From positions 1-61,032 of IMG/VR virus record IMGVR_UViG_3300032219_001145: a DNA stretch of 61,032 nucleotides; one strand, given 5' to 3'. Every line of letters starts with the position of its first letter. Position 1 is the stretch's first letter. Shown piece by piece: positions 2,491 to 60,715 of the stretch. The notes under the pieces were generated by a model. It did not search any database, was not told the origin of the DNA, and saw nothing but the letters and a program-made list of their open reading frames with translations. Both the position numbers and the translations under genes were made by a program. This stretch comes from a virus. Lineage: Duplodnaviria > Caudoviricetes.

Positions 2491-3411
2491 TTACTCCTTT
2501 ACGTACTTGGCATATTCCTCAAGCGGAACACCCAGCTTTTTGGCAATTGCAACTTGACTCGGGGTCAACTTGACAGTGCGGCGTGCGTTGTTGATACCCG
2601 AAGATCGGGATGCAGGAGCCACCGTTTGCACGAGTCTGGCGGACCTGTTAGTTTGCGCTTGCTGCTGACCCCCGCCCAGCTTCTGGGGGAAGGTCTGCTT
2701 CAAGCGCGCGTCTAGCTCATCATAATACTCATTGCTGTTTGGGTCAAATCCCTCAGACTGAATCAACTGACGATGGATTCCCCAGGCTGCATGAGTCATG
2801 GCAGTATCTCGGCCGTACCAGGGGTTACGTTCAGCCCAGTCCTCGACCCGTGGGTCGACTTCCTGCTGAACTTGTACCTGGGGCTGCTGGGCAGCTTGCT
2901 GGGCAGCGACCTGCTGCTGATAGTTCCACTGCTGCACCTGCTGCTCGCGCTGTTGGGTAGCAGCAGTGATCTGGCTTTGCTCCATAGTGAGCGAGGTCAG
3001 GCGCTGCTGGGCTTCCGTTTCGGTGTCAATGTCACCTTCTTCACGGGCCTTGCGGATGATTTGCTTTAGGGCAACAACTTGCGTCTGAACACGGCCATTG
3101 GCCTCGCCCAGGCGCGCGCCGTCCACGGTCATGTACTGCTGCTCGAGCTGGGTAGCCCGGGCCTGTACGCTCTTTGCGTACTCCAAGGCTGCCTGCTCGC
3201 GGCGCTGGGTCTCGCGCAGGCGCGCGGTCAGTTTGTCAATGCGCTTCTTGACGCCTTCGCTGTACTGGTCAAGCTCTCCGGCCTCACTGGAGGTTGTCTC
3301 AACCCTGGGCGCTTGGGGCTTGTCCAATACTTCAGCAGCACCGTCCTCCCCAATGGAAACGGTGGCCGGACTCTCGTCCTCACCTATCTTAAATTCAAGT
3401 TGCTCATTCAT
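2491..3411 (-). CDS. Probable scaffolding protein
   Basis: 306 aa, coiled-coil, Gln/Glu rich; C-terminal VKLTPSQVAIAKKLGVPLEEYAKY helix pair; position in head module. Confidence 0.7.
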   Translation of the reverse strand: MNEQLEFKIGEDESPATVSIGEDGAAEVLDKPQAPRVETTSSEAGELDQYSEGVKKRIDKLTARLRETQRREQAALEYAKSVQARATQLEQQYMTVDGARLGEANGRVQTQVVALKQIIRKAREEGDIDTETEAQQRLTSLTMEQSQITAATQQREQQVQQWNYQQQVAAQQAAQQPQVQVQQEVDPRVEDWAERNPWYGRDTAMTHAAWGIHRQLIQSEGFDPNSNEYYDELDARLKQTFPQKLGGGQQQAQTNRSARLVQTVAPASRSSGINNARRTVKLTPSQVAIAKKLGVPLEEYAKYVKE

Positions 3412-3423
3412 GTCATTGCTCCT

Positions 3424-3897
3424 TTACATGTGCAGGATGTCTTCAGGACTGTTTACCACTCCAAGTACCTCGTCGTCGTTGATGAGACGAATCTCACCCC
3501 CGTCGATTGGGATGCGTGCGCCAGCGTAGCGGCCAAAAATAATCCAATCACCCTGTTTGCACCAGGCACCGGTGGGGAATTTGGATTGATCGGCATAGGC
3601 CAAGGACCCTACCTTCAAAACGTAGCCGCATGTGGTGCCAAGCTGCGTTCTGCGCTGCGTTTCTTCGGGGATAAAAATACCGCCCTTAGTTACATCCGCG
3701 CCGCGATAGGGAAGGATGGCGATGCGCCACCCACTGGGTTTTGGTATGGTGTCGATGACCGCTTGGTGGAGCTTTTCGGGGTCAAAGCCCTGCTCGGTGT
3801 AGGCGTCTTCAAGGGCAGGCGGCTTGTTAGCTGCCTCCTCGGCCCACTTACGCTCCAAGGCGGTCATGTTGATTTCAGGTACTGTTGCGGTTTCCAT
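3424..3897 (-). CDS. groES: GroES-like co-chaperonin
   Basis: PSGWRIAI...TKGGIFIP...VLKVG...GDWIIFGRYAG...INDDEVLGVV matches the Cpn10 pattern. Confidence 0.85.
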   Translation of the reverse strand: METATVPEINMTALERKWAEEAANKPPALEDAYTEQGFDPEKLHQAVIDTIPKPSGWRIAILPYRGADVTKGGIFIPEETQRRTQLGTTCGYVLKVGSLAYADQSKFPTGAWCKQGDWIIFGRYAGARIPIDGGEIRLINDDEVLGVVNSPEDILHM

Positions 3898-6648: not shown

Positions 6649-9600
6649 TTAGCTGTGAGCCTTGATGAAAGCCGTGTTCTTGTCGACCTCACCGCCTTTT
6701 GCGTATGGTACCGCGCCTTTCATCTCTGGCGTGATGTCGATGTAACGAACCGCTTCTTTTCCACCGCCCAAATGCTTCTCTTTGTAGCGATTGGCCAGTT
6801 GCTGTGCTTCCTGCAAGCTGTTGGCATTTTGGTTGACAATTTCTGTCGACCCATCAGCTCTTACGCCCAAAACGGTTGTGTCGGTAAAGTTCCCTCGTCC
6901 AACAATGTAGTCAACATAGGCGGGCGCGATGGGTTCAGTTTTAATTTGCGTTATGCCTGTTGCGGCATTGAACTTTTTGCCCTGCTTTACAAGGAACGCG
7001 GGGTAGATTTCATCATAGTATTTTTTCATACCCTCGCTGGCAACCTGAAGGTCATCGCCCTCCAGCCTTCTTACTTCAGCCAGGTCCGGCTCAATCTCAG
7101 GGTTAAATTCATTTCTACCTTCTTTAGCCATCATTTTTTTAGTGACTTCTCTTCCCACAATGCCTTCTAATTCTTTTGCGGAGTAGTCGCCTCGCAACAC
7201 GTTTGCACCGTTTTTTGAGATGACGTTGATGTAAAAACCCTTTTCTGTAGGCTCATAGCTAATGTTGTCCACTTTTTCGGCCATGTTATACCGCTGGGCC
7301 TGCTGCATGCCCGTGGTTAGTCCCACTCGCTCATAGCCATTGTCAGCGGCATACTTCAATGCGCGCTTGAGGGCCAGTTGATGCCATGTGTCTTTGAAAG
7401 GCGCGTCGGGAACGCCTTCGTTAGAACCTCTGCCAAGCCTATTTTGTTCTGTCTGCAACATATTGAGTCTGTTAGAAACACTGTTCCATTCATTAAGAAT
7501 GTCTCTTGGGGCGTCTTTGCCTTGACTTGTATAAGGTAATGCAAGTTCTTCAAGTTGCTTTTTTCTTTCCCCTAACTGCTGTCTTTCTGCAAGCAAATTA
7601 TCTAGTTTCTTTTGTTCCGCAAGTTGTCTTTCTGAAGTGTTATACCCCTTTTCCCGCCCCGCTTGATGCCAATCAGATTGAAGTTCTTCAATTAACAGCA
7701 TTTTCTTGCCATCAGCATCCACGCGGTCGTTAACTCGCATGTGGGCCAAAACATTGGGTTGGTTAAAATGGGATGACTTATATGTTTGTGATCTGATTTT
7801 TTTTCTTAACTCTAGTGCCGTGGCTTCCGCTTGATCTCGTAACTTTACAGAATCTCTGAGTTTTTGATAGAGCGCAACCGTGCCCGGAGTGCCGGGGTTT
7901 AACTCGCTTGCGGCCCTCCATTCCCCCATTAAATTAGTAGTTTGCCTCCTTAAATCCCCCGCAGCAATTTGAGCAGCATCTAATTCAGCTTCTCCGCGAA
8001 CAGGTGTAGTCAACAATATTTCACGGTAGTTCTTACCGCCTGGAAGTACGAGACGGGGGTTGTCGAATCTAGTTGGCGCAGGTTCAGGGACAACATATGC
8101 GGCATCCGCTTCACGGTCCCGTACGCTCTGCAGTTCTGTAAGCCTGTTAGACAGGGCAGGGTCGTATGTATCGAAGTCTATCCGCCTGTAAAGCGCCTGT
8201 ATCTCAGGTTCGTACTTGTCAAACACTGCCTTGCGCTTGGCAATGCCTGCAGGGTCTTCGACGACGTTACCGCCTAGCTGCACCTCTTTGACGTCAATCC
8301 GGTTGTTGGCTATGAAGTCCTGGACCTCTTGCCGCGTTACCTTGGGTTTCCCCTTTAAAAACTCGTCCAGCCCCATGGACGTTAACTCTTCTTTTTTCAC
8401 ATCAGAGGCCTTCATCAGGTCGTTCAGGAACGCGTTGCCTGGACCTTCTTTACGGGGCAAGTTCAAAGCTGCTTGCTCTGCCGCAGAGTAAAACCCCAAG
8501 TTAGATGCGGGAGCAGGGATCACTGCACGGCTTTGAGGCGAGACAGCGTACGACGCGCCGGGCGCGGAAAACTGTTGGTTGTACTGCTGGAAGTCCTTGG
8601 CCACGGCTGTGGCTGCCTTGCCTGTTTTTTCCGCGCCCTTGACAGCCGCGCGTGTTACGCCAGCAGGATTGATGAAGTTGGACAGGAGCTCGCCGGCGGT
8701 GTAGAAGCCCTTGGCGGTCAAGTCGGCAGGAGGTGCCTGGCGAATACCCGCCTGGGTCATCTTCTCCTTGATGAAGTCGCTGCCCCCGATGGGCTTCTCG
8801 GCGGTGTAGCCAAACGGGCGCATCAGCATTGTTGCCACATCCACCGGCGCACCCAGAATGTCATAGGGCAATTCCGTCGCGCCCTTGGCCATGTTGACGT
8901 ACGCGTCGCCGGAGTCTATGGCCTGGCTGACAGGCCCCTTCTTGCGGTTCAGTCCGGTGCTTGGGCGGGCCTTGGGCACGTAAAACTTGTCCAAAGATTC
9001 TTCGCCTTCTTCCGGGCTGCCTCCGGCGCGGTATTCAGGAGGCGGGGTCATGCCCTTTTCTGCCTTGGCTTTGCGCGCGTCCATCTGCTCACGGCCCATG
9101 ATGTACGGCTTGCCTTCAACCTTTTTGGTCTGGGCCTGCAGTGCCATGGCCCGCACGAGCTTCTCTAAATCTGCCTGGCTCGTGGTCCGTGATGCAAGGT
9201 CCACGCCCAGCTTGTTGTTGTGCACGTCCAGTTCGTAATCGTCACGCGGCTTGCCAATGCCAAACATGCTGAAGAACGACTCAGGGTTGCTTGTACGCTC
9301 ATGAACCTTGCCCAGGAACGCTGCCACATCTGGGCCAACCTTCTTTGACAGGGCGGCTGCGGCCAGCATGTGGCGGGCCGCGTCCCGCTGGTCGTCCTGG
9401 CCCAACTGATCCGGGAACATGCGCTCCGACACGTCGGCGGCATAGCTGCTTACGCTGAAAATGCCAGGCTCTTTGGCACCTTCAGCGTCCGACTTTTTTG
9501 CTTCACCACCTTCTTTAAAGCGGTTTTTGGTCAGCCGGTTCTTGGTCAGTGTTGGGCCTTCCAAGGTCGGCGCACCAAAGGTGTCAGCGGACAGACCTCT

Positions 9601-12078
9601 GGCTTGTTCCTGTGCCGACCTGATCTTCAGTTGGTAGATTCGGGCAAGCTCTTCCATCTGCGAACGGGCAGATTCCGTGTTCCGCGCTGCGGGGGCCCTG
9701 TCCTTCATTGCGCCCAGGTCACCCTTGGCCAAGTCCTCATACGCCAGCTGCATTGCCTTGTCCGCTTCCGCGCCGCCGCCCGAGGCGGACCTTGAGCGCT
9801 TGATGGACTGCCGTGTAGGCGAGGCCTTGCCTGCGCCACTGAGGTCGGCCAGCATTTTCTGCGCTGTGCCCACGGGGTCCGTGTTGATGACCTCTTCCGG
9901 CTCCTCATCCGACAGGGTTTCGGCGTTCTGCGCCATCAGGGCTTCAAGGTCTACGTCGCCGCCCTTGGCAAAGCCTCCGCGTGTTCCGCGATCCCCACCG
10001 CCTGATGCGTCGCGCGCGCCGCCGCCGGTGTCTCTGCCTCCAGTAGCCGCACCCCCGCCATACCCGCCGCCGCTTTGGCTGCCGCCGCGCTCTCCGCTAG
10101 GGGGCGGGCCGTCAGGACCAGGCCCATAGGCTTCATTTGAACGCAACTGACTTAGTACACGGCTAGGTTGCGCTTGCAAACTTCCCGAAGGTGCTCCAGC
10201 CTCAACATTCTTAGCGGTTGCATTTCTCTCGGCTACGGTGGATAAGTAGCTGCCGTATGTGTTAGCCAATGACCCAAGCGCTTTTAAAGGCATACCAAAA
10301 GGGGCCATCACAGGATAGTTTGACAGTGCTTTTCCTGCGTCCAGCATGGACCGCGCAAACCCCGGGCTCGGGTTAAACCCTTCTCCGGGCGCACCTTCAG
10401 GGGCAGTTTGCCTACCGCCTCCACCCCTATTCTCCGCGCCTCTTACAACCCAGTCGTTGCTTGGCGGGGTATATCCGCCGCTACTGGCTACATAGGTCTG
10501 GCCCGTCTTGGGGTTGTACCAAGTAACTGTTTCCATGCTGTTCACGCTGTTGGAAGGCGGCTTAAACCCAAAATCTCCGCCTACTTCGCCGCCCTTGGCA
10601 AAGCCAAAGGGCCCACTAATCGGGGCCATGCCTGGTGCAGTTATCCGGTTGCCCATGCGGTCCGTAAAGAATCCGGCGTTCTGTGCGCCACCCAACATAG
10701 TGGGCGACAAGTTGGGGTTCGAGCCCATGGTATTCATTGTGTTCATCGCGCCGTACATGGGCATGTCGGGCGAGCCAATGGCCGCGCTTCCTGGAGCAAG
10801 GCCCGTGGAGGTCTGCGGCGTCATGGCAAAGTAGTTGCTGGTCGCCGCGTTGACAGGACCCACTGCACCTATGCCACGGCTGGTGTAGCTGGGCATGGCA
10901 GGCATAGAGATGGGGATGTCCGCAGCAGATTGGCCGGCAGAACCTCCCATGCCAGGCAGCCTTATTTGGCCGGGCAAAACAGGCGGCATATACGAGGTGT
11001 TTTCAGGTGCTCTGCTAATAAACTCAGGCACTGCATTCCGAGCTCTTGGAGTTGGCGGAGTTGGAAGTGGAGGCGGAGCTATGGGCGTAAGTTGAGGCGG
11101 AGCCGCAGGAGGAGATTCGGTATACGGGGGCGGAACCGTTGGGGGTGCTGGCATTTGCTCCAACTGGTCTCTTGCCGAGGGAGGCGCAGGTGTTCCGATA
11201 ACGGGAACTGCAATCATTCTTTCGCGCGCTGCCGCTGCTTCCCGCTCCGCCTGTGCTCTGGCCGCTGCATCCGCCGCGTCTCTTTCCCTCTGTGCCTCTT
11301 GCGCTAGACGCGCCAGGTAAGACTCATACGCCCTGTCGTTCTGCTTGCCCAAGCTCCCTGAGCCTACCGTCCCAAAGTACGGGGAGTCGTACATATCCGC
11401 CGTACCGATTTGGCCAAACGGGTCACTGTTTTTCTCTATGTAAGCCCTGTACTCGGGGGACTCATAGTACGGGTTGTCCGCCGCTACTGTGGAAGGTAAA
11501 AAAGCAGGTTGGGCTTTTGCCCCACGTTGTCGGGCCTCCAGCTCCGCCCGATCAGCAGCTTGTTGCGGGGATATCGGACCGTTTAAAGGCGCAATTGTTG
11601 TAACTACATCCTTAGCAAACTGTTCGCCTCGGTCTAACGATGATGTTCCTGACGAAGAGGGGCTAAAGGCGTTTTCAATTTTTTTGACAACCTCGCCAAC
11701 AAAGCCCCCTTTAAATTCTGACAGGCCTGTAACAGGGTTGATGGTCCCAGAGCCGCCGTTCTCTTTTAAGAACCGCACTGACTCGGGTGACAGGTAGGCA
11801 AGGAGTTCATCGCCGCCCCGACCTGCGGCCGCCACCTGGTCGGCCAGCTCCATGATTTCTTCTTTGGTGTAGCCGTATGACTCGAAGTCCTTAATGATTG
11901 AGCGGGCTGCTTTGTCCTGTGGGTCTTCGCTGACCTCGCCGCCCTTGGCCATGAGACGGGTCATCTCGTCGTTGTACGCCTGACGTTGCTGCTCAAATGC
12001 GTCCAGTTCCATTTGCCGCGTGCTGGGATCGGCAAAGTTCTGAACAGCAGGCATGTCGTACTTAGATTTCTTCATCAT
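6649..12078 (-). CDS. Large modular (polyvalent-type) protein, 1809 aa, probably virion-internal
   Basis: Segments separated by [M/F/Y]xxGG motifs; contains GSGTINP module, Pro-rich linkers, an RH..HE..DxHNN domain and an EELQSDWHQ domain. Confidence 0.75.
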   Translation of the reverse strand: MMKKSKYDMPAVQNFADPSTRQMELDAFEQQRQAYNDEMTRLMAKGGEVSEDPQDKAARSIIKDFESYGYTKEEIMELADQVAAAGRGGDELLAYLSPESVRFLKENGGSGTINPVTGLSEFKGGFVGEVVKKIENAFSPSSSGTSSLDRGEQFAKDVVTTIAPLNGPISPQQAADRAELEARQRGAKAQPAFLPSTVAADNPYYESPEYRAYIEKNSDPFGQIGTADMYDSPYFGTVGSGSLGKQNDRAYESYLARLAQEAQRERDAADAAARAQAEREAAAARERMIAVPVIGTPAPPSARDQLEQMPAPPTVPPPYTESPPAAPPQLTPIAPPPLPTPPTPRARNAVPEFISRAPENTSYMPPVLPGQIRLPGMGGSAGQSAADIPISMPAMPSYTSRGIGAVGPVNAATSNYFAMTPQTSTGLAPGSAAIGSPDMPMYGAMNTMNTMGSNPNLSPTMLGGAQNAGFFTDRMGNRITAPGMAPISGPFGFAKGGEVGGDFGFKPPSNSVNSMETVTWYNPKTGQTYVASSGGYTPPSNDWVVRGAENRGGGGRQTAPEGAPGEGFNPSPGFARSMLDAGKALSNYPVMAPFGMPLKALGSLANTYGSYLSTVAERNATAKNVEAGAPSGSLQAQPSRVLSQLRSNEAYGPGPDGPPPSGERGGSQSGGGYGGGAATGGRDTGGGARDASGGGDRGTRGGFAKGGDVDLEALMAQNAETLSDEEPEEVINTDPVGTAQKMLADLSGAGKASPTRQSIKRSRSASGGGAEADKAMQLAYEDLAKGDLGAMKDRAPAARNTESARSQMEELARIYQLKIRSAQEQARGLSADTFGAPTLEGPTLTKNRLTKNRFKEGGEAKKSDAEGAKEPGIFSVSSYAADVSERMFPDQLGQDDQRDAARHMLAAAALSKKVGPDVAAFLGKVHERTSNPESFFSMFGIGKPRDDYELDVHNNKLGVDLASRTTSQADLEKLVRAMALQAQTKKVEGKPYIMGREQMDARKAKAEKGMTPPPEYRAGGSPEEGEESLDKFYVPKARPSTGLNRKKGPVSQAIDSGDAYVNMAKGATELPYDILGAPVDVATMLMRPFGYTAEKPIGGSDFIKEKMTQAGIRQAPPADLTAKGFYTAGELLSNFINPAGVTRAAVKGAEKTGKAATAVAKDFQQYNQQFSAPGASYAVSPQSRAVIPAPASNLGFYSAAEQAALNLPRKEGPGNAFLNDLMKASDVKKEELTSMGLDEFLKGKPKVTRQEVQDFIANNRIDVKEVQLGGNVVEDPAGIAKRKAVFDKYEPEIQALYRRIDFDTYDPALSNRLTELQSVRDREADAAYVVPEPAPTRFDNPRLVLPGGKNYREILLTTPVRGEAELDAAQIAAGDLRRQTTNLMGEWRAASELNPGTPGTVALYQKLRDSVKLRDQAEATALELRKKIRSQTYKSSHFNQPNVLAHMRVNDRVDADGKKMLLIEELQSDWHQAGREKGYNTSERQLAEQKKLDNLLAERQQLGERKKQLEELALPYTSQGKDAPRDILNEWNSVSNRLNMLQTEQNRLGRGSNEGVPDAPFKDTWHQLALKRALKYAADNGYERVGLTTGMQQAQRYNMAEKVDNISYEPTEKGFYINVISKNGANVLRGDYSAKELEGIVGREVTKKMMAKEGRNEFNPEIEPDLAEVRRLEGDDLQVASEGMKKYYDEIYPAFLVKQGKKFNAATGITQIKTEPIAPAYVDYIVGRGNFTDTTVLGVRADGSTEIVNQNANSLQEAQQLANRYKEKHLGGGKEAVRYIDITPEMKGAVPYAKGGEVDKNTAFIKAHS

Positions 12079-12117
12079 ATCGCCCCGGCCAAGGAAGTAG
12101 TTTGGACATTTTACGCG

Positions 12118-13575
12118 TCAATAGTACTCCGGCACAAGGTCCTTGGCGGATTCTTCTTCCACGTCATCTGTACCCAGGGTAATGAAGTTGCCGCGCCGAA
12201 AACGGTCCATGGCCATTGTTGTGCTGTCCACCATGTCGTCATTGTCGCCATGCGGGAAGGCCGCGCATTCCTCTACAAGCATCTCGGCCCATTCCGTATC
12301 CGGGGCCCAGACCATGCCAGCCTCAAATACAGGTGCTACTGCGTTGGCCCGCGCTACCTTGTCGGTGCCCGTGCGCCGCCCGCCAGGGGAGTACATCGTG
12401 ACCGGGATGTTCATTCTTCGCAGCTCCTGCTGGAGAGGAGTTCCTGTGGCCTTGGCCTCGATCAGCACGTTGTCCGGTTGCCAAAGGTCGTACTGTTCCT
12501 TGGCAATACGTTTGAGTTCCGGGAAGTCCCAGCGCCCGCGCTTGACGTCCAGCAGCATGATTGACGCGCCGGAATCCTCGCTCAGGTAGAACACGCCCCA
12601 GGTCGTGATGACAGAATAGTCAGCCGTCTCCTTTTTGGAATACGCCGTGTCCATGGACTGGATGATGTAGTTCACAATGGGCGGCTCGTCCTTTGGCCAG
12701 ACTTTCCACCACTCCCTTTTCAGGATGGCACCCTCGTCGTTCGTGGGCTGCTGCTGGTACATCGCGTTCCACTTCTGCACCGACAAAGAGGCTTTCACGC
12801 CTTCAAGCTCCTCCAACTTCCAGTAGCCCGGCCAAAGGGGGCGACCGCTTGGCAGGATGGCGGGGAACTCGATGACCTCCCACTGGTCCGCGTTGCGCGA
12901 TTTCTGCGCCTTGAGCAGCCGCGCCGTCAAGTCCTTGGTGCTCCAGCGCGTCATCACAATGACAATTGCACCACCTGGTTGCAAACGCGTGCGAGGGCCA
13001 GAGATGTACCACTCCCAGGCGTTGTCCAAAGCAAGCTCACTCATCGCATCCTGTTCCGAATGCGGGTCGTCAATGATCAAGACGTCCGCGCCACGGCCGG
13101 TCATTGCGCCGCCCACACCGACGGCAAAGTACTCCCCACCTTTGTTTGTGTCCCACCGGCCGGCGGCCTTCGAGTCCTGCTTCAAGATCACATCGGGGAA
13201 CACCTGCTTGTACGTGTCCATGTCCATTAGGTCACGGACTTTCCGGCCGAATCGAACGGCTAACTCGCTGTTGTGGGTCGCTTCAATGGCCTTGGTTCGC
13301 GGGTCTCTTCCCATCAGGTAGGCAGGGAGCAGATAGCTTGCAAATTCAGATTTTGTGTGCCGGGGAGGCATGTTGATGATCAAACGCTTAAGGGTGCCGT
13401 TGGCAATCCGGTCGAACGCCTTTGCCATGACCGTGTGGTGCTCTCCAAGGATCGCGCTGGGCCAGACGTAGCGGGCAAAGTCGATGAAGCTGGTCTGGGC
13501 ATTGCTTTGCGCACCAAGCTGCGCGAGCCGGTACTCGAGTCTCAGCCGTTCCGCGTCTACTTCTTCAGGGATCAT
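12118..13575 (-). CDS. terL: Terminase large subunit
   Basis: Walker A-like INMPPRHTKSE, Walker B LIIDDPH, coupling motif VMTRW, nuclease motifs SMDTAY and DDMVDS. Confidence 0.95.
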   Translation of the reverse strand: MIPEEVDAERLRLEYRLAQLGAQSNAQTSFIDFARYVWPSAILGEHHTVMAKAFDRIANGTLKRLIINMPPRHTKSEFASYLLPAYLMGRDPRTKAIEATHNSELAVRFGRKVRDLMDMDTYKQVFPDVILKQDSKAAGRWDTNKGGEYFAVGVGGAMTGRGADVLIIDDPHSEQDAMSELALDNAWEWYISGPRTRLQPGGAIVIVMTRWSTKDLTARLLKAQKSRNADQWEVIEFPAILPSGRPLWPGYWKLEELEGVKASLSVQKWNAMYQQQPTNDEGAILKREWWKVWPKDEPPIVNYIIQSMDTAYSKKETADYSVITTWGVFYLSEDSGASIMLLDVKRGRWDFPELKRIAKEQYDLWQPDNVLIEAKATGTPLQQELRRMNIPVTMYSPGGRRTGTDKVARANAVAPVFEAGMVWAPDTEWAEMLVEECAAFPHGDNDDMVDSTTMAMDRFRRGNFITLGTDDVEEESAKDLVPEYY

Positions 13576-13605
13576 GGAAGTCCGTTTCGTTTCAAATTTT
13601 TAAAT

Positions 13606-13634
13606 ATTTTGACACGAGTTGAGTTTGTTGACAA
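13606..13634 (-). promoter_or_regulatory. Sigma70-type promoter for the terL/morphogenesis operon
   Basis: TTGTCA-17 bp-CAAAAT with TGn extension, about 30 nt upstream of terL. Confidence 0.55.
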
Positions 13635-13664
13635 AGGGGGCCCTTTATTGCTGGGCCCGAAAAC

Positions 13665-13680
13665 TGTTTCACGTGAAACT
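13665..13680. promoter_or_regulatory. parS: parS-like ParB-binding palindrome
   Basis: TGTTTCACGTGAAACT, 15/16 match to the chromosomal parS consensus TGTTTCACGTGAAACA; intergenic. Confidence 0.75.
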
Positions 13681-13759
13681 GACCGTGTGAAAAAGGGCTA
13701 ATGCCCGCGCAGCTGGCGACCCGGCCCGTTTTTTGGGCCCCGGCACCCCGGGGTCGGCG

Positions 13760-14305
13760 GCCAGGCACCAGGGCGCGCGCACCAGGGCGACGCGGCCACC
13801 GGGCCACCAGGGCGCGCACCAGGTAACGCGGGCCACGGCCCCAGGTCGGCGGCCACCAGGTCGGCGGCCACCAGGTCGACGGCCACCAGGTCGGCGGCCA
13901 CCAGGTCGGCGGCCACCAGGGCGCGCACCAGGTAACGCGGACCACGGGCCCCGGCACCAGGTCGACGGGCCACCAGGTCGACGGCCACCAGGTCGGCGGG
14001 CCCCGGCACCAGGTCCAGGCACCGAGCCCCAGGGCGCGCGGACCATGGCCACCAGGGCGCGGCCGGCGAGCCCAGGCACCAGGTCGACGGGCCACGGGCC
14101 ACGGCCACCAGGTCGGCGAGCCCCGGCACCAGGCACCAGGTCGACGGGCCACCAGGGCGCGGATCGGGGCCTGGGCGGTGCGATACGCGGGCCACGGTTC
14201 AGGCGTCCGGTGGCCGGGGCCACGGGGCGGGCCCAGGCGGCCACCAGGTCGGCGGGTTACCCGGAAAACCCGGCGGGTTATATGCGCCGTCGGTGCGATA
14301 CCAGG
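13760..14305 (+). repeat. Non-coding, strand-oriented CACCAGG repeat array
   Basis: About 28 CCAGG versus 1 CCTGG on the + strand (manual count); core 15-bp tandem CCAGGTCGGCGGCCA at 13841-13920. Confidence 0.9.
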
Positions 14306-14308
14306 CGC

Positions 14309-14335
14309 AAAAAAACCCGGCGCGCGGCCGGGTTT
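14309..14335 (-). terminator. Intrinsic terminator closing the early region
   Basis: AAACCCGGC-loop-GCCGGGTTT stem with U tract on the - strand. Confidence 0.75.
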
Positions 14336-14357
14336 GAGTTAAGGGAAACCGGCCAGG

Positions 14358-14576
14358 CTAGGCGGGCACCCCGGCGGTGGCGGCCAACTCAGTCAGCATG
14401 GCGTCGGCGGTGCCCAGGGCGTCGGCCCGGTTATCGGTGAAATACTCGGCGACCAGGCGGCCGCCGGGGCCGGTGGCGCGAACCTGGTATTCGGACCAGG
14501 TGGCCGACCAGGCGACGCGTACCAGGCCCGCGTCGGCCAGGTGGACCAGCTGGACCAGCTGCAGCCGGGGGCTCAT
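14358..14576 (-). CDS. Early hypothetical protein (72 aa)
   Basis: ATGA-coupled to the upstream gene; WSEYQV...YFTDNRADALGTA. Confidence 0.7.
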   Translation of the reverse strand: MSPRLQLVQLVHLADAGLVRVAWSATWSEYQVRATGPGGRLVAEYFTDNRADALGTADAMLTELAATAGVPA

Positions 14577-14809
14577 GCGCGCTCCACCCGGATACCGCCA
14601 CGCGGGCCCAGGCTAAGGACCAGGTCGGGGTATTCCACCAGCTCGGCCCGACTCGGGGCCAGGTGTATCGAACCGTCCAGGGCCTGGCCATATTCGGCCA
14701 GGTCGTGCGCGTCGTAGCCATAAGCGGCTATAGCAGCAGCGCGCGTGCGATAAGGGCGGGCCTGGTCCAGGTCGTCCGAGCCCAGGCGCAGGAAATAAAG
14801 CGCGCTCAT
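14573..14809 (-). CDS. Early hypothetical protein (78 aa)
   Basis: ATGA coupling on both sides; C-terminal LGPRGGIRVERA. Confidence 0.7.
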   Translation of the reverse strand: MSALYFLRLGSDDLDQARPYRTRAAAIAAYGYDAHDLAEYGQALDGSIHLAPSRAELVEYPDLVLSLGPRGGIRVERA

Positions 14810-15138
14810 GATTGAGCCCCCTCGGCCAGGTCGGCCAGGTCGTTATAACTAAGGGCGTCGGCGACCAGCTCGGCCACCGGGCGACGGGCGACGGCCACCC
14901 CGGCCAACAGCTCGGCGGGCAGCAAACAATCCAGGGCGAAGCGCTCCCAGGTCACGCCGTCGGCCACGCGGTGAAATACGGTCGACGTGCCGGTGACCAT
15001 AACCGGCCAGGCTTCGCACAATACGGCCACGCCGTCGGCCACCAGCATCACGTCACCGTGCGCGATTACTTCGCACTGCGACCAGTCGTAAGCGCTGGAC
15101 ATGTCCAGGGCGCGGAGATCAAAAATTATCGGGCTCAT
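14806..15138 (-). CDS. Early hypothetical protein (110 aa)
   Basis: Preceded by promoter and AGAAAGCGAGAAA leader; AYDWSQCE...GDVMLV..GVAVLCEAWPV. Confidence 0.7.
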   Translation of the reverse strand: MSPIIFDLRALDMSSAYDWSQCEVIAHGDVMLVADGVAVLCEAWPVMVTGTSTVFHRVADGVTWERFALDCLLPAELLAGVAVARRPVAELVADALSYNDLADLAEGAQS

Positions 15139-15186
15139 GCTTTCTCGCTTTCTAGGTTAGTCCCGGCCACCGTGGCCGGGGATTAA

Positions 15187-15216
15187 ATTTTACTCTAATA
15201 AATCCACTGAGTGCAA
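15187..15216 (-). promoter_or_regulatory. Early sigma70-type promoter
   Basis: TTGCAC-18 bp-TAAAAT. Confidence 0.65.
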
Positions 15217-15221
15217 CAAGT

Positions 15222-15246
15222 AAAAAGCCCGGCACCTGGCCGGGCT
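15222..15246 (-). terminator. Intrinsic terminator
   Basis: AGCCCGGC/GCCGGGCT stem plus U tract after the DUF932 gene. Confidence 0.7.
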
Positions 15247-15266
15247 CGGTGGCCAGGTCGGCCAGG

Positions 15267-16295
15267 TTACGCGGCGACGCCCAGCTCGGCATCGGCCAAC
15301 AGTTCGACGGCCCGGGCCTTAAGTGCTGCGCCGGTGCCAAACCACGCGCTTTCCATGCGGGTATTGTCCGAGCGGCCGCGCTCATGGTCGACCAGCTCGG
15401 TAACAGAATTCAGCATCGCCCAGCGGGTCCCGGCCACGCCGGGCAGGTCGGAACCGATCGCCCGGCCGTTAAATAATTCCATGATCCGAACGTAAGCCTT
15501 CGATTCATTTACAGGGCGCGCGCTCGAATGGTATGGGCGCAGCAGCTCGGACACAAATGCGTCGGCCTGGTCGCGATCCATGGGGGCCCCGGCGAGCTGG
15601 CGCGACTGAACCAGGAAACCCTCGAACGCATTCGCGACAATGCCGAGCTGTAGCCGGACGGCGTCGGGATCGAAGCGCTCAGAATGCAGAACCCGAACGG
15701 CCGATTTCAGATAGCCGGTGTTAATCTCGCCCTCGCCCTGAATCACGCGGCCGCCACTGTATCCGCCCACGGCCGCCGTGATTGTGTTATGGCAAACCAC
15801 GCGGATCGCTGTAAATTTTGCGACCGTCGCCATGGTCCCGTCGTAGCTGGTGCCCAACAGTAGATAGGGCTTCACCAGGTCGCCGTCAACCACGGGCGCA
15901 GCATCGCCGACGCTGGCCAGGGCCCAAACCCGGCGGCCGTCACTCAGAGCCCCGGCGGTTTCCAATTGAAAGCCGCCCAGGTCGACCAGGGAGCGGAAAA
16001 AATCCATCACCTGGCCGGGCTGTACCACGTTATATGCATTCGACACGACGGCCAGGGGCGCGCCGGTGTCCGAACGGTGTAAAACTTTACGAGCTGGCCA
16101 GGTTTGCAGCTCGGTCGCGGCCGGTGTCGAATATTGCACGGGGCTTTCGAGCACGTCATAAGCCAGGCCCGCCTCGCGTGTCCAGGTGTCAATACTGGCC
16201 CCAGGTGTTAAGGCCTGGCCCAGGGAATGCCATGGGGTTTGTCCGGTGTATGCCATGGCGGCGCGGCCGGTGGTTTCGTCGATCATATGTGCCAT
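15267..16295 (-). CDS. DUF932 / TIGR03299-type phage-plasmid protein
   Basis: MAH...TPWHSLG, ETAGALSDGRRVWALA, AIRVVCHNT, WAMLNSVTELVDH, SAWFGTGAALK. Confidence 0.85.
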   Translation of the reverse strand: MAHMIDETTGRAAMAYTGQTPWHSLGQALTPGASIDTWTREAGLAYDVLESPVQYSTPAATELQTWPARKVLHRSDTGAPLAVVSNAYNVVQPGQVMDFFRSLVDLGGFQLETAGALSDGRRVWALASVGDAAPVVDGDLVKPYLLLGTSYDGTMATVAKFTAIRVVCHNTITAAVGGYSGGRVIQGEGEINTGYLKSAVRVLHSERFDPDAVRLQLGIVANAFEGFLVQSRQLAGAPMDRDQADAFVSELLRPYHSSARPVNESKAYVRIMELFNGRAIGSDLPGVAGTRWAMLNSVTELVDHERGRSDNTRMESAWFGTGAALKARAVELLADAELGVAA

Positions 16296-16345
16296 TTGAT
16301 TCTCGCTTTCTAGGTTGATGCCGGGGAAAATCCCCCGGCCGGATA

Positions 16346-16375
16346 ATTTTAGCCTAATATTTTTCGGTTTGTCAA
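16346..16375 (-). promoter_or_regulatory. Early sigma70-type promoter
   Basis: TTGACA-18 bp-TAAAAT. Confidence 0.75.
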
Positions 16376-16395
16376 CAAGTCAACAAAAATATATT

Positions 16396-17085
16396 TTAGG
16401 TCGCCAGGCCCAGGTCGCCGACCACGTGATGGCGCAGCAGCGATCCAGGCGGCAGCGAACGGGAAAACCGCAGCAGCTCGGCCGCGTCGTCCTGGTGGCC
16501 GCCGGTTTTTGCTTTTTCCCAGGCCAGGCGAACGGGCCCGCCGTTACCGTAGCAGCCGCCCGGGGCATCGTCGCCGACCAGGCGCGCGCCGCTACCATGG
16601 GCGACAAACACAATCACATAATCCCGGTCGCCGCGTGCGCACAATGGGCGGCCGCCGCCGCACTGGTCGCAGCTGAAATTTTCGGCCAGCTCGGCCGGGC
16701 ATTGCACAAAGCGCACGGCGTCGACGGTGTACGGCCATACGGTGCCGGACGGTGCGGCCACCACGGCCGGGCGGCCGATGGCCACGGCGGCCAGGGCCTG
16801 GGGGATCGTGTCACAGCTCGCATTTATCACGGTTTCACCAGGTGCGGGCACTGGCAGCAGCTCGGCCGCAAAATGCGAATACGTCCAGGCCTGGCCATTA
16901 CGCGGGACGGCCTGGCGAACGGCCTGCAAATATTCCAGGTCGACCAGGTCGGCCGCGTGGTCGCCCTGGGGATTCAGTGCGCAGGTTTTCGGGCAGGTCG
17001 CGAATACGTTATGGCCACCGGCGCGGTAAGTCACAGCGATGGGGCCGGTCTTTTTGTTGCCGGAATGTTTGACGGTCTTAAGCAT
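16396..17085 (-). CDS. Cys-rich phage protein (gp88-like, possible Fe-S binding)
   Basis: SGNKKTGPI, TCPxxC, CPA...CxxC...LC, FVAHG, LRHHVVGD motifs. Confidence 0.6.
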   Translation of the reverse strand: MLKTVKHSGNKKTGPIAVTYRAGGHNVFATCPKTCALNPQGDHAADLVDLEYLQAVRQAVPRNGQAWTYSHFAAELLPVPAPGETVINASCDTIPQALAAVAIGRPAVVAAPSGTVWPYTVDAVRFVQCPAELAENFSCDQCGGGRPLCARGDRDYVIVFVAHGSGARLVGDDAPGGCYGNGGPVRLAWEKAKTGGHQDDAAELLRFSRSLPPGSLLRHHVVGDLGLAT

Positions 17086-17347
17086 ACTGGCCCCCTGGGA
17101 TTGTGTCGGCCTGGGGCGCGCGCTCGATCAGGGCGAGGGTTTTTAGGTCGGTTATTTCCTGGGATAAACCAGGGCGGAACCAGGCCCCATTGTGTTCAAC
17201 GGCCACCTGTTCGCCGTACATGTACGCGTTTTCGTTTTGCGTCACGTTTGACGCGGCCGGGCTCAGGTGCCGGGGCTGCACCAGGTAAACCGCGCGGGCC
17301 CCGGAGGGGAGGACCACCAGTAAGGCGGTGTCGGACAATAAAGGCAT
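17078..17347 (-). CDS. Early hypothetical protein (89 aa)
   Basis: ATG after AGAAAGCGAGAAA leader; TATAAT at 17404-17409. Confidence 0.65.
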   Translation of the reverse strand: MPLLSDTALLVVLPSGARAVYLVQPRHLSPAASNVTQNENAYMYGEQVAVEHNGAWFRPGLSQEITDLKTLALIERAPQADTIPGGQYA

Positions 17348-17443
17348 AATTTTCTCGCTTTCTTTCTTTCTAAGTGGCCGGGCGGGTTGCCTGGCCTGAA
17401 ATTATTATAGTGCAATAAATCAACAAATCAACTGCCTACAAAT

Positions 17444-17469
17444 AAAAAAAAACCCGGCACGCGGCCGGG
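17444..17469 (-). terminator. Intrinsic terminator
   Basis: CCCGGC/GCCGGG stem plus 9-U tract. Confidence 0.7.
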
Positions 17470-17489
17470 CAGGGATCGAGCGGGCCGGA

Positions 17490-17711
17490 TCAGGCCCGAC
17501 GGTCGGCCAGCGCCTGGTCGGCCTCGGCAGCGCATGCGCGCCAGGCATTCCAGGAAATAAAGCCGGTTTCGGCGTCGGGCGGCGTCTCGGTGGCCAGGAT
17601 ATCGGCCGCATAGTTGCGCATCGCTTCAAGGACAAAAGCCTGCATGAGCGGGCCGGTGCTGGACTGCTCCATTATGCGAACGATAAATTTTGTGTTTGTC
17701 TCGCGTGTCAT
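17490..17711 (-). CDS. Early hypothetical protein (73 aa)
   Basis: MTRETNTKFI...GPLMQAFVLEAM...FISWNAW. Confidence 0.7.
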   Translation of the reverse strand: MTRETNTKFIVRIMEQSSTGPLMQAFVLEAMRNYAADILATETPPDAETGFISWNAWRACAAEADQALADRRA

Positions 17712-17721
17712 GGTAGCCCCC

Positions 17722-18150
17722 TTATGGTCGAATTGAAAAAGTGTTGTTGGAGAAAAAGTCGCGCATCACCTCGTCGATATCGATGTGCGCATAAATTTTC
17801 TCGCTATCGAATTCTGATGCCAGGTCGGACAGATCAATCTCGCCCGCCAGGTCGGCCAATTCGATCTCGCCCGCGATGGTGGTCAGCTGGCCTTCGGTCA
17901 GCTCGGCCGCCAGGTCGGATACGCTGATATTTTCCCCAACGGTCACCAGCTGGGAGTCGCTGAGGTGCTCGGCGATGGTGGCCAGCTGGGAGTCGCCGAT
18001 ATATTCGGCCAACTGCGCCGGGGTAATGTTGCCCAGTGCTTTGTCGCTGGCGTGGGTCGCCAGCTCCACGCGAACCATGTCGGCCACCAGGGGGCGCATT
18101 TGCTCGGCGAGGTCTTTGACCAGCGCCTGCATGATTGTGTTGAATTCCAT
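17722..18150 (-). CDS. Acidic helical-repeat early protein (142 aa)
   Basis: About 9-12 aa repeats such as QLATIAEHL and DLAGEI; strongly Asp/Glu rich. Confidence 0.75.
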   Translation of the reverse strand: MEFNTIMQALVKDLAEQMRPLVADMVRVELATHASDKALGNITPAQLAEYIGDSQLATIAEHLSDSQLVTVGENISVSDLAAELTEGQLTTIAGEIELADLAGEIDLSDLASEFDSEKIYAHIDIDEVMRDFFSNNTFSIRP

Positions 18151-18203
18151 GTCTTTCTCGCTTTCTGAGGGTTATGGCTTCGCGGATCGCTCGGCCTGGT
18201 TGC

Positions 18204-18233
18204 ATTGTATATCCACTTTTATCCACTTGTCAA
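18204..18233 (-). promoter_or_regulatory. Early sigma70-type promoter
   Basis: TTGACA-18 bp-TACAAT. Confidence 0.75.
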
Positions 18234-18385
18234 CTGCCACCACCAAATATTTTGTGGAAAAGCCAAAAGCCCAGCAAACGACGAACCAGGCTGCCGGTTT
18301 GTGCCTGCTTTTGTTCAGGGTCTGGGGGTGGTCTCAATTGGTGCAAGCGCGCCTCTTCCAGGCGTTTTCGGTCTCGACGTCGCAT
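18230..18385 (-). CDS. Small protein (51 aa) below the ORF-track cutoff
   Basis: MRRRDRKRLEEARL...LVRRLLGFWLFHKIFGGGS; fills the gap. Confidence 0.45.
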   Translation of the reverse strand: MRRRDRKRLEEARLHQLRPPPDPEQKQAQTGSLVRRLLGFWLFHKIFGGGS

Positions 18386-18389
18386 GCGG

Positions 18390-18548
18390 TCACCGATCTA
18401 GCTCTGAATCACCGGGTTCGTATCGCTCGTATGCCAGGAACAGGGTAATGACCTGCTCCCGGGTCACCTTGAGGTCGCGGGCGATTTCTGTCACGGTCCA
18501 ACCAGCCGCGTCGGCCTCGAACGCTTCTTCGATCAATTCGTTATCCAT
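18390..18548 (-). CDS. Small helix-turn-helix protein (52 aa) below the ORF-track cutoff
   Basis: MDNELIEEAFEADAAGWTVTEIARDLKVTREQV; conserved leader and promoter upstream. Confidence 0.65.
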   Translation of the reverse strand: MDNELIEEAFEADAAGWTVTEIARDLKVTREQVITLFLAYERYEPGDSELDR

Positions 18549-18593
18549 AAATTTCTCTCTTTCTAGGTTGCCTGGGACATCCAGGTGCTTACC

Positions 18594-18623
18594 ACTTTAT
18601 CACAACTCTCGCATACAAGTCAA
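18594..18623 (-). promoter_or_regulatory. Early sigma70-type promoter
   Basis: TTGACT-18 bp-TAAAGT. Confidence 0.6.
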
Positions 18624-19042
18624 CTGTCAGTTAAATGTTTCCTGAGTTCAGACCAGGACACGCCCGTCCACGGCCACCGGGCCAGCGCGGGGGTATCGAC
18701 CCCCAGGGTCGCCAGGTCGATTGCCTGCTCGCCGCAAAACAGCAGCAGCTCGGATTTGCTGGCATGCGTCGTGCCGGCCGGGTGATATTGCACCAGGATG
18801 TAGGTCGGGCAGCGCAGGTCGGCATGTTTGACGTGAAAGGCGACCTGGTGGGGTGATAGGGCGACCTTGCGGCCGCGTTTGACCACCTTCAGCTCGACCA
18901 TGACAAACAAGCCATGCGGGAATGCCAGCAGGCAGTCCGGAATGCCCAGGTTCACCCTGGACTCAATCCGGGTGAAATGGCAGTTTGGGAGGTTTTCTCT
19001 CAGCCTTTTGTACAGGTTCGCTTCGGGTTTCAGTGCCATCAT
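18620..19042 (-). CDS. VRR-NUC / Holliday-resolvase-like PD-(D/E)XK nuclease
   Basis: E..LY, RIES..NLGIPD, MVELKV, LSPHQVAFH. Confidence 0.8.
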   Translation of the reverse strand: MMALKPEANLYKRLRENLPNCHFTRIESRVNLGIPDCLLAFPHGLFVMVELKVVKRGRKVALSPHQVAFHVKHADLRCPTYILVQYHPAGTTHASKSELLLFCGEQAIDLATLGVDTPALARWPWTGVSWSELRKHLTDS

Positions 19043-19634
19043 CTTCCCCTTCTTCGGGTTCTTCCTCGATCTGCTTGGGTGTCACGTCCACAATAGGCCC
19101 AGCGTTGCCGCCGTACAGGCGTTTGATTTCTTCGAGCTTGCGCACGACCTCTTCTTTGCTCATGCTGTCGATTGTGCCGTGGCGAATTTCTTTGCGGTCG
19201 ATGTAAATCGAACCCAGGGCCTGGCCCCTTCGGTATTCGGCCTGGACGGCCGCGCCGTATGCGCCAGCCTGCAGCGCCTGGTCGCGGATAACCTGCAGGT
19301 CTCGCATATGCCGCTCGAACGTGGTGCCGTACTTCTCGCCCAGCTCGCGCCTTCGCTCCTGGATCGCGGCCACGATATGCGGGCAAATCTCCGGGTCGGT
19401 CAGCTCGCGGGCCCGGCTCTTGGCCCAAACCTCGCTGTACCCGGCGCGGATTGCCGACTCTTTCAAGGTGACGTGACCATCGCCCGCGCAAAATTCTTCG
19501 ACAAACTTCCATTCCTGGCTGGTCAAAACTCTTGGCTTGTGGGCTTTGACCGGGCCGGTCACCCGGGCCTCGACAACAGCAGGCCTCCCGCCCAGGCTCT
19601 TGCCGGCCAAGAACTTCTCGTCTTTACCGCCCAT
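18963..19634 (-). CDS. terS: Terminase small subunit-like protein
   Basis: LTSQEWKFVEEF...ESAIRAGYS...ARELTDP, AAVQAEYRRGQALG; TGATG coupling at 19634. Confidence 0.75.
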   Translation of the reverse strand: MGGKDEKFLAGKSLGGRPAVVEARVTGPVKAHKPRVLTSQEWKFVEEFCAGDGHVTLKESAIRAGYSEVWAKSRARELTDPEICPHIVAAIQERRRELGEKYGTTFERHMRDLQVIRDQALQAGAYGAAVQAEYRRGQALGSIYIDRKEIRHGTIDSMSKEEVVRKLEEIKRLYGGNAGPIVDVTPKQIEEEPEEGEDDGTETRSEPVQKAERKPPKLPFHPD

Positions 19635-19852
19635 CAAGCCACCCGCCACAGCCGCCAGCCTTCGCCATAGCGCCGACAGGTGAATCGGGTGCCTGGGTGG
19701 CGTTTGGAGTACATGTAGGCCGCGCTGCGCAGGTTCTTGATCCAGGTGGCGTCCAACACCAGGAAACTGTCCCCAAGGGCCATATCAGGGAATGGGTAAC
19801 GCTCGCGGGGGTCGACGCCGCCAGGGAGGGGGATGTTTTTGTCAATTTTCAT
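19634..19852 (-). CDS. Small conserved phage protein, probably DNA-binding
   Basis: MKIDKNIPLP...YPFPDMALGDSFLV...GWRLWRVA. Confidence 0.7.
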   Translation of the reverse strand: MKIDKNIPLPGGVDPRERYPFPDMALGDSFLVLDATWIKNLRSAAYMYSKRHPGTRFTCRRYGEGWRLWRVA

Positions 19853-19914
19853 GGCTACATTGTGCAACAAAACCACAACTAACGCAACTACAAGGGCAAC
19901 CCAGGTCAAATTCG

Positions 19915-20140
19915 GGGTTTTATGTAGACTTTTTTAGACCAACGTATGAAAAGTTTTTTTCAAAAAGTTAGCTCGCGCGCATTTTATGTAAATTACACCT
20001 ATTGACTATGTGTAATGTAGTGTGTTCTCATAACCTATTGATTTCATTAAACTATTACACCATTACGTCTATTACACTTAATTTCAAAAAAATAAAAAAA
20101 ATAAAATCACTTTTTCATTTTTGTTCTACTGAATAGCTGA
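19915..20140. other. AT-rich non-coding region with ATTACAC repeats, candidate replication origin
   Basis: ATTACAC at about 19992, 20054 and 20071, inverted GTGTAAT at about 20010, followed by A and T tracts. Confidence 0.5.
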
Positions 20141-60413: not shown

Positions 60414-60715
60414 TACTGCGCTGCTCCACCATAAAAGAACAACGTCACGCTGGTAACTTCAGCGCTGGAAACATCAATAAACACCCCTGAATCAAAGAGA
60501 ATTCCCATATCTGGAAGGATGAGGTCAGTGGCTCCCGCCGCAGCAGGGGTAGTGATGGTCAGCAGTACAGTGCCTGCAGTGGTGCTGCCGTTTTTCAACG
60601 TAAAGGACGCGGCCGTAGCCGTGTTTGTGAAGTAAATGCCAGCTACCCTTGTGCGACCCCCAACTGCATGGCCATCGGCAGTCTTTGTGACTGCCTGAAT
60701 ATTGCTGTTGCTCAT
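60413..60715 (-). CDS. Small virion structural protein
   Basis: 100 aa, beta-rich, GILFDSGVFI..VTLFF. Confidence 0.65.
   Translation of the reverse strand: MSNSNIQAVTKTADGHAVGGRTRVAGIYFTNTATAASFTLKNGSTTAGTVLLTITTPAAAGATDLILPDMGILFDSGVFIDVSSAEVTSVTLFFYGGAAQ

Follow-up and report, generated by a model that had tools for sequence, protein, structure and literature searches.

This study examined a non-coding array of short, oriented, Chi-like words that lies directly upstream of terL, the gene of the large terminase subunit, in the viral genome IMGVR_UViG_3300032219_001145. This IMG/VR record, the whole of which is called the window, comprises 61,032 bp, represents a complete virus, and carries nearly all of its genes on the minus strand. 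Along the direction of transcription, the minus-strand order at the locus is a 72-aa gene, a hairpin, the array, a 184-bp spacer, a promoter-like site, and terL. The 72-aa gene (14358–14576; phrog_7884, function not assigned) is the last gene before the array. The upstream operon ends in an intrinsic-terminator-like hairpin at about 14309–14335, with a 9-bp stem, a 5-nt loop, and U7; it was absent from the list of a simple terminator scan and was found in a separate look. The array occupies 13760–14305 and the spacer 13576–13759. The promoter-like site (13606–13634; TTGTCA-17 nt-(TG)CAAAAT) is located 31 bp before the start codon of terL, which spans 12118–13575 and encodes a 485-aa protein (phrog_38, E 6e-111). 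The original prediction had placed the array between a terminator and the terL promoter, and the flanks are as it claimed: a terminator-like hairpin upstream and a promoter-like site for the minus-strand terL downstream.

The array is real, non-coding, and highly non-random. A recount of the plus strand between 13700 and 14320 yielded 28 CCAGG, 1 CCTGG, 21 CACCAGG, 12 CCACCAGG, and 12 GGCCACCAGG; the manual counts given earlier for these words (28, 1, 21, and 12 octamers) were exact. Twelve of the 13 forward copies of GGCCACCAGG in the window are located in this interval. On the terL strand, the array follows the motif (C/G)G(A/C)CCTGGTG(G/C)C and contains 28 CCTGG, 21 CCTGGTG, and 12 CCTGGTGGCC, and its G+C content is 78%, compared with 56% for the window. 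We compared the word counts with those of 1000 dinucleotide-preserving shuffles of 13760–14305 on the terL strand. The results revealed that the 28 CCTGG stood against 3.62±1.74 in the shuffles (maximum, 11), the 21 CCTGGTG, accompanied by no reverse copies, against 0.49±0.68 (maximum, 4), and the 12 CCTGGTGG against 0.17±0.40 (maximum, 2).

Tandem Repeats Finder identified a 15-bp tandem core of the array at 13836–13999 on the minus strand (11.2 copies, 82% match, terL-strand unit CCGACCTGGTGGCCG), together with overlapping periods of 7, 8, 14, 16, 57, and 72. Successive CCTGG copies are spaced irregularly at 6–81 bp and include overlapping copies at 7 bp. Because the word falls in all three reading frames (14/8/7) and the spacings are not multiples of 3 (13/8/7 modulo 3), a coding repeat was rejected, and the non-coding status claimed earlier for the stretch between the terminator and the terL promoter-like site stands. 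The bases flanking the core of the word are semi-conserved, with 0.5–1.1 bits from −8 to +10 in the site logo. The array thus resembles both an array of words and a degenerate tandem repeat. The claim that the word and not a period is conserved consequently requires qualification: the irregular spacing and the single 15-bp core agree with it, whereas the semi-conserved flanks do not. An Rfam scan of 13400–14600 returned a best match at chance level (14.4 bits, compared with a gathering score of 100).

The closest named relative by TerL is the metagenome-assembled lake phage DSL-LC04 (77% identical), followed by phage 023Pt_psg01 and the Pelagibacter phages HTVC027P and HTVC023P (56–59%); the nearest characterised relative is PY100, at 33.5% identity. 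A megablast search of 12000–16500 against phage records produced no match. Closer relatives were retrieved from IMG/VR, where a TerL search gave 80 loci with 81–99% identity and a search with the putative small terminase subunit (TerS) gave 80 further loci, 27 of which also contained the start of terL. The upstream regions of at least 800 bp, 87 in number with the window and DSL-LC04 included, were dereplicated to 57. We scored an oriented array where the most frequent 7-mer of the zone from −800 to −170 before terL occurred at least 7 times and its reverse complement no more than twice, and such an array was found at the equivalent place in 42 of the 57. The count of the top 7-mer exceeded that of all 100 Markov-1 resamples in 31. 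The polarity of the words was pronounced: CTGGTG outnumbered CACCAG in 50 relatives and was outnumbered in 1, TGGT exceeded ACCA in 51 versus 4, and GTGG exceeded CCAC in 50 versus 2. T exceeded A in 54 of the 57 and not in the other 3, opposite to the skew of the genes. At least five CTGGTG were present in 37, and the G+C content of the upstream zone was 0.59–0.79 in 56. These findings reveal an array that keeps its place and its polarity throughout an abundant clade of uncultured lake phages. The stretch was present in the Logan contigs of all four sequencing runs examined (X1, X2, X8, and X15, out of 21), three of which are labelled freshwater metagenome, and the summed word depths of the clade in lake metagenome contigs reached thousands in run X8.

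The repeat units differ among the relatives (15, 12, and 47 bp) while the polarity persists. The unit word is GCTGCCTGGTC in L016, L019, and L020 and CCTGGTGCGCG in L073–L083. G006 (the L088 record) carries CACCTGGTCGA within a 47-bp unit present in approximately eight near-perfect copies, and the array of DSL-LC04 is looser, with CCCTGGT and CGTGGCC words. In L089 (TerL 82% identical), an array of the 12-mer GAGCTGGTGGCC contains 13 exact copies of the E. coli Chi word GCTGGTGG, which the window array lacks entirely (0 copies), in matching place and orientation. The pooled octamers across the relatives comprise 167 CCTGGTGC, 158 CCTGGTGG, and 24 GCTGGTGG, and the eighth base of the word alternates between G and C. 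Among distant relatives, HTVC027P, 023Pt_psg01, Pag-Yong1, and CRP-810 have no such gap before terL.

Several candidates outside this set were rejected. Seven opposite-oriented CTGGTGG at a 15-bp period in G003 (the L038 record; 60480–60573) are not a second array; they encode a proline-rich (VVPPP)n stretch in a large protein downstream of terL. Array words were also matched genome-wide in five complete relatives and DSL-LC04; the apparent 11 to 1 excess of CACCTGGTC in G006 stems from the array, which a gene insertion has displaced. An IMG/VR-wide scan for three close copies of CCTGGTGG returned at least 119 loci. In 77 of the 79 examined, all spacings were multiples of 3, indicating coding Pro-Gly-Gly-type or pentapeptide repeats; the remaining two were the clade relative L267 and the unrelated contig L215, and the scan cannot show convergent arrays in unrelated phages. 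L215, a 4.5-kb virus contig, holds a non-coding run of five CCTGGTGG at 700–900 (unit ACCTGGTGGTT(CT), spacings of 11 and 13 bp), and GT-rich DNA comes after it. The run is located approximately 0.7–0.9 kb past the 3' end of the contig's own phrog_38-type terL, on the other strand.

Literature searches did not find a published description of such an array before terL, and a search for CCTGGTGG returned primer matches only. Term searches of two papers on HTVC023P-type phages showed nothing on a repeat array before terL. In the DSL-LC04 paper (PMC10611076), the terms "terminal repeat" and "packaging" occur 0 times, and the passages covered do not mention a Chi signal.

We further analyzed the proteins that might read the word. 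The putative TerS is a 228-aa protein encoded at 18963–19649 on the minus strand, 5.4 kb upstream of terL, with a weak match to phrog_51 (1e-8) and a PF03592 match below the cut-off. In an alignment of 28 TerS sequences, 27 of them readable (the L136 row was empty) and covering at least eight word types, the predicted helix-turn-helix region was nearly invariant whatever the array word. L151 and L152 are identical in this region and carry GCCCTGG and CCTGGTGGCC arrays, respectively; L159 and L160, both with GGTTCGCGGT arrays, differ in it by a few residues. TerL likewise remains 81–99% identical across the relatives while the words change, and no covariation with the word was observed among seven proteins encoded upstream. 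Because TerS, TerL, and the upstream proteins do not track the word, a conserved phage protein is, on these sequence comparisons, probably not its reader, which leaves a host protein or no sequence-specific reader.

The separation of the putative terS and terL by approximately 5.4 kb and 8–10 genes is an unusual arrangement of packaging genes. The intervening genes include DUF932 (15267–16295), DUF7227 (16396–17085), and a nuclease/helicase-like 140-aa protein (18620–19042). Directly after terL, 6649–12078 encodes an 1809-aa protein, probably a virion protein that is ejected, which matches DUF6973 and contains an endolysin-like stretch; the counterpart in DSL-LC04 carries the annotation "PcfJ-like". 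With a G+C content of 61%, compared with 56% elsewhere, the 5.7 kb upstream of the array (14321–20000) form a compositionally distinct module. CCWGG, CCSGG, and GGCCA occur there at 3–5 times the density of the remaining genome, and CCTGG occurs 69 times on the coding strand and 27 times on the other.

The original prediction had proposed a DNA end near the array that would be packaged last and ejected first if packaging starts near terL and follows transcription. Contigs of the related loci end frequently in this region, with 38 of 80 ending within 4 kb upstream of terL (27 within 1.2 kb and 11 in the next 2.8 kb). We rejected these ends as termini; they scatter over 13469–14600, from inside terL to beyond the array, and coincide with repeats. 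The 118-bp terminal repeat of the window, an assembly overlap that falls within a gene, was also rejected as a physical end, and the "terminal repeat" of G006 lies inside that genome's own 47-bp tandem array. The Logan contigs, which carry no read starts or ends, demonstrated the same difficulty at the array. Those of run X1 cover the flanks and stop on either side of the 15-bp core, leaving 13871–13969 uncovered. In runs X2, X8, and X15, joints across 13745–14320 skip 43–199 bp, and the length of the array varies among co-occurring strains. The contig ends near terL are assembly breaks at a repeat, not mapped termini. PY100 is reported to be a headful packager that starts from a pac site (PMC8583763), and this report weakens the claim of an end packaged last and ejected first. 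If headful packaging holds here, the useful end would be the unpackaged side of the first terminase cut, not a virion end, and on the strength of the PY100 report we prefer this version.

The candidate site of such a cut is the spacer that separates the array from terL. Its DNA sequence is conserved in DSL-LC04, L089, L051, and L038, the relatives compared. Within the spacer are small GGCCC/GGGCC hairpins whose loop is A-rich, GGGC-NNNN-GCCC, and GATTTCACAC, and the block AGGGCCCCCTTTGTCAAC sits just before the terL promoter-like site. A perfect 14-bp palindrome, GTTTCACGTGAAAC (13666–13679), is present in the spacers of the window and L038. The spacer could hold a pac or cos site or a site for a regulator of the late genes. 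Insertions occur at or beside the array in some relatives, and the junction appears to be a hotspot. G006 carries a zinc-finger/HNH-like open reading frame between the spacer and terL, L051 an extra gene between two identical terminators (3094–3510), and L038 a reverse-strand gene near the array (3130–3420). Upstream of its canonical-Chi array, L089 contains GAGAATGAGAATCATTCTC at 3225–3255, beside a second perfect palindrome, AATGTAAACGTTTACATT; the former resembles a Fur box.

The word CCTGGTG(G/C) matches E. coli Chi at seven of eight bases and differs in its first base, C. All the words are on the terL strand, which is the correct orientation for RecBCD-type entry at an end between the array and terL. 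RecBCD recognises Chi on entering from the end where the Chi-bearing strand ends 3' (PMC12315714); the earlier argument that CCTGGTGG on the terL strand needs entry from the terL side, at 13.6–13.7 kb, is thus right. Within the window, 21 of the 38 terL-strand CCTGGTG lie within 730 bp upstream of terL, and the word is thereby clustered opposite the terminase genes.

We tentatively favour, while stopping short of calling it probable, the explanation that the array is a DNA-encoded control element whose Chi-like words would stop or redirect a host RecBCD/AddAB-type enzyme at the free end that the terminase creates by cutting. The layout of the locus, the orientation of the words, the conserved place and polarity in the relatives, and the missing covariation with TerS are observed; the cut site, the direction of packaging, the host enzyme, and the ability of this enzyme to recognise the word are inferred. 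The terminase would cut the concatemer in the conserved 184-bp spacer, stay on the terL side, and package it, and the other side of the cut would be a free duplex end terminating in the array. An enzyme entering there would read 5'-CCTGGTG(G/C)-3' on the strand ending 3', the active orientation of Chi, and would have at least 20 chances in 550 bp, such that degradation would be halted before the upstream genes. RecA would then be loaded, and the concatemer remnant would be kept and could act as a primer for recombination-dependent replication. With unique ends (cos or direct terminal repeat), the array would also guard the last-packaged, first-ejected end. The irregular spacing with overlapping 7-bp copies fits a scanning enzyme better than proteins bound side by side. 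Further points in favour are the one-directional copies of a word so close to Chi, the polarity kept among relatives with different units, the exact Chi octamers of L089, the G/C alternation at the eighth base, the resemblance in topology to the phages LLS and MD8 discussed below, the lack of a Gam, RecT, ERF, or AAA_24 match in the window, and the near-invariant TerS region and upstream proteins that do not follow the word. The canonical GCTGGTGG, counted outside the arrays and summed over seven complete genomes, also favours the terL strand, by 41 to 7.

A number of findings weigh against this explanation. Outside the array, CCTGGTG occurs 17 times on the terL strand and 8 times on the other (binomial p 0.11), and CCTGGTGG 4 times on each. 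The clustering of CCTGGTG toward the array (Kolmogorov–Smirnov p 0.013) is unspecific, since the word holds only rank 6 among 34 7-mers of equal composition. Outside the array, CGACCTGG is the most frequent octamer, and the array unit resembles the commonest coding oligomers, so its Chi-like look could come from codon-like composition; the neighbouring 5.7 kb are, moreover, generally rich in CCNGG and GGCC. Codon usage (CTG, GTG) may be behind the 41 to 7 strand bias of the canonical GCTGGTGG in the seven genomes; in the window, the counts of this octamer outside the array are 7 and 2. Direct tandem duplication alone yields one-directional words without selection. Searches of the window for Gam, RecT, ERF, and AAA_24 gave no match, but the window encodes a PD-(D/E)XK exonuclease and many unannotated proteins, and it is not established that a Rec module is lacking.

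The relatives also provided counterevidence. The expectation that related phages would carry oriented arrays of differing words held for the presence of the arrays and for the words, which often differ. Ten of the 57 have at most one CTGGTG and words unrelated to Chi despite TerL being 84–93% identical; these words include GGTTCGCG and CATGGTG (L038), CCGCGATCCG, CCGAGCTC, GGCCCGCC, and CGTGGCC. The top word was reversed in 4 of the 57, and L051 has five reversed CCGACCAGGC. An orientation-dependent function does not predict reversed or unrelated words, unless hosts differ or loss is tolerated.

Buton and Bobay tested CCTGGTGG as one of 25 one-base Chi variants in 495 complete Proteobacteria, and the five main motifs that they name do not include it (PMC8022716). 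According to the same source, most Proteobacteria have no detected Chi, and experimental knowledge of Chi words is limited to very few bacteria (PMC8022716). The only host lead, a weak one, is a TerL match on a 3-kb contig binned in an alphaproteobacterial metagenome-assembled genome, in which CCTGGTGG occurs 188 times in 3.8 Mb, compared with 84 for a control word, and this is not a Chi-like density. In a table of 401 Pseudomonadota genomes read by eye, CCTGGTGG reached 200–400 per Mb in some, and GCTGGTGG was commoner than CCTGGTGG in 5 of the 401, picked for high CCTGGTGG excess; these word counts say nothing about the host. The host of DSL-LC04 comes from software alone, both in the authors' prediction of Pseudomonas (PMC10611076) and in the GenBank record, which gives Gammaproteobacteria.

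A packaging signal is a somewhat unlikely alternative, in which the array belongs to the pac/cos region read by the terminase and supplies either binding sites for the initiation of packaging, as lambda cosB or the P1 pac hexamers do, or a cosQ-like polar signal that slows the arriving motor before the terminal cut. The array is located directly upstream of terL and adjoins the conserved spacer, the words are polar relative to the direction of the arriving motor, and related contigs end more often within 1.2 kb upstream of terL than in the next 2.8 kb. However, those scattered ends are explained by unresolvable repeats. The word changes or is lost among relatives in which TerL and the helix-turn-helix region of TerS stay conserved, with no covariation, and terS is 5.4 kb away. 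The 20–30 irregular sites, some overlapping at 7 bp, further count against this alternative.

We also considered it unlikely that the array is a fast-evolving, GC-rich minisatellite without a sequence-specific reader, generated by slippage or unequal exchange and having at most a bulk role (spacing, a GC block, or insulation of the operons). This explanation would account for the turnover of units between close relatives, for near-perfect higher-order tandems such as the 47-bp unit repeated eight times in G006, and for the joints that skip part of the array in three other runs. Direct duplication gives one-directional words automatically, unrelated words occur in the ten relatives described above, and high G+C is the most general property shared by the upstream zones. 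Against the minisatellite, the array is kept at one place down to the 77% TerL identity of DSL-LC04 in tightly packed genomes, and the CTGGT core recurs inside different units with a terL-strand polarity of 50 versus 1. The excess of T over A, opposite to the gene skew, also argues against it.

A polar protein roadblock or regulator array, in which a phage or host protein bound at many oriented sites would reinforce the terminator and hold early or middle transcription out of the late operon until the right time, appears improbable. The mycobacteriophage stoperators are comparable elements, the array lies exactly between the terminator and the late promoter-like site with its sites oriented with transcription, and DSL-LC04 is annotated with a helix-turn-helix regulator and a small sigma-like protein. 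Nevertheless, no covarying binder was found among the seven upstream proteins, copies overlapping at 7 bp would be odd for a bound protein, and the words change between close relatives.

An iteron-type replication origin is highly improbable. The direct repeats do lie beside an AT-rich stretch of approximately 40 bp (13590–13640), but the terL promoter-like site and leader occupy this same stretch. The 78% G+C, the short 15-bp unit, and the irregular spacing differ from iterons, which are approximately 17–22 bp and regular, and the replication genes are 12–19 kb away with no initiator nearby. Least credible of all is a CCWGG (Dcm/EcoRII-type) cluster acting through cytosine methylation, for which Dam control of P1 pac offers an analogy, the 29 CCWGG in 550 bp speak, and reversed words in some relatives would be irrelevant given a near-palindromic site, but which is contradicted by a strand bias of 28 to 1 together with a conserved TG(G/C)C extension, which mark a longer asymmetric word, by the absence of a PF00145 C5-methyltransferase match in the window, by the similar enrichment of CCCGG/CCGGG in the neighbouring genes, and by several relatives without a CCWGG array.

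Returning to the explanation of the array as a control element for a host RecBCD/AddAB-type enzyme, a more specific version is a host-tuned, DNA-only "Chi bumper", that is, a tandem host control word on the unpackaged side that would be swapped by repeat turnover at a change of host. We regard this version as rather doubtful. If it were true, the arrays (CCTGGTGS, GCTGGTGG, CCTGGTC, GCTGCCTGGT, GGTTCGCG, and others) would read out the Chi words of uncultured freshwater bacteria, giving a sequence-only handle on phage-host pairing, and phage genomes could then report on the Chi specificity of their hosts. Should the Chi explanation fail, the array still explains the assembly breaks of the clade just upstream of terL, and it is a hypervariable locus useful for strain typing.

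Short oriented repeats beside terminase genes are found in the lambda cosQ and cosB sub-sites and in the hexamer repeats of P1 pac, where a few oriented sites at defined positions guide packaging and are read by conserved terminase subunits. The present array shares this general form with them. In contrast to those systems, it has tens of copies at irregular spacing, and its word changes while TerS and TerL stay. The SRL and SRR short-repeat arrays of T7 reportedly flank a mapped terminal repeat and are said to lie at a podovirus concatemer junction; like the present array, they consist of irregular short direct repeats in non-coding DNA. The word and the composition differ, and only the T7 arrays adjoin a mapped end.

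Among known Chi variants are GNTGGTGG of H. influenzae, GCTGGCGC of P. syringae, and chi* GCTGGTGCTCG (PMC8022716, PMC12315714, PMC5041463), the last of which is read by a RecC mutant (PMC5041463). The alternation of G and C at position 8 of our word recalls chi*, and the CTGGTG core is shared with E. coli Chi. The closest comparison is with the lambdoid phages without a Rec module, as described by Zheng et al. (Genome Res 2025), in which nearly all Chi are on the terminase-coding strand and clustered opposite the terminase genes (PMC12315714). Chi is distributed 20 to 3 in the E. coli phage LLS, and GCTGGCGC 32 to 0 in the P. aeruginosa phage MD8 (PMC12315714). According to that account, the left end is covered by the terminase and RecBCD has access to the right end, in phages that have neither a Rec module nor a RecBCD inhibitor (PMC12315714). 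How the free ends made during packaging survive in inhibitor-less phages is only now being worked out (PMC12315714).

The present phage, which belongs to an unrelated, podophage-like lineage, is similar to LLS and MD8 in several respects. Its words are on the terminase-coding strand, at the end opposite the terminase genes, and in the orientation needed for an enzyme that enters where the terminase cut would leave a free end, and the window search recognised no Gam, RecT, or ERF. The distribution of the sites differs. LLS and MD8 have 20–32 sites over kilobases of coding DNA with genome-wide enrichment, whereas 21–28 copies are present here in 550 bp of non-coding DNA in a tandem-like arrangement with little enrichment elsewhere. 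If linearised between the array and terL, the phage would show the LLS/MD8 topology in extreme form. By this analogy, the array would represent the "terminally clustered Chi" strategy in a compact, non-coding form, and its 20–30 oriented Chi-like words at a terminase junction would, if the explanation is true, constitute the most concentrated natural Chi element described.

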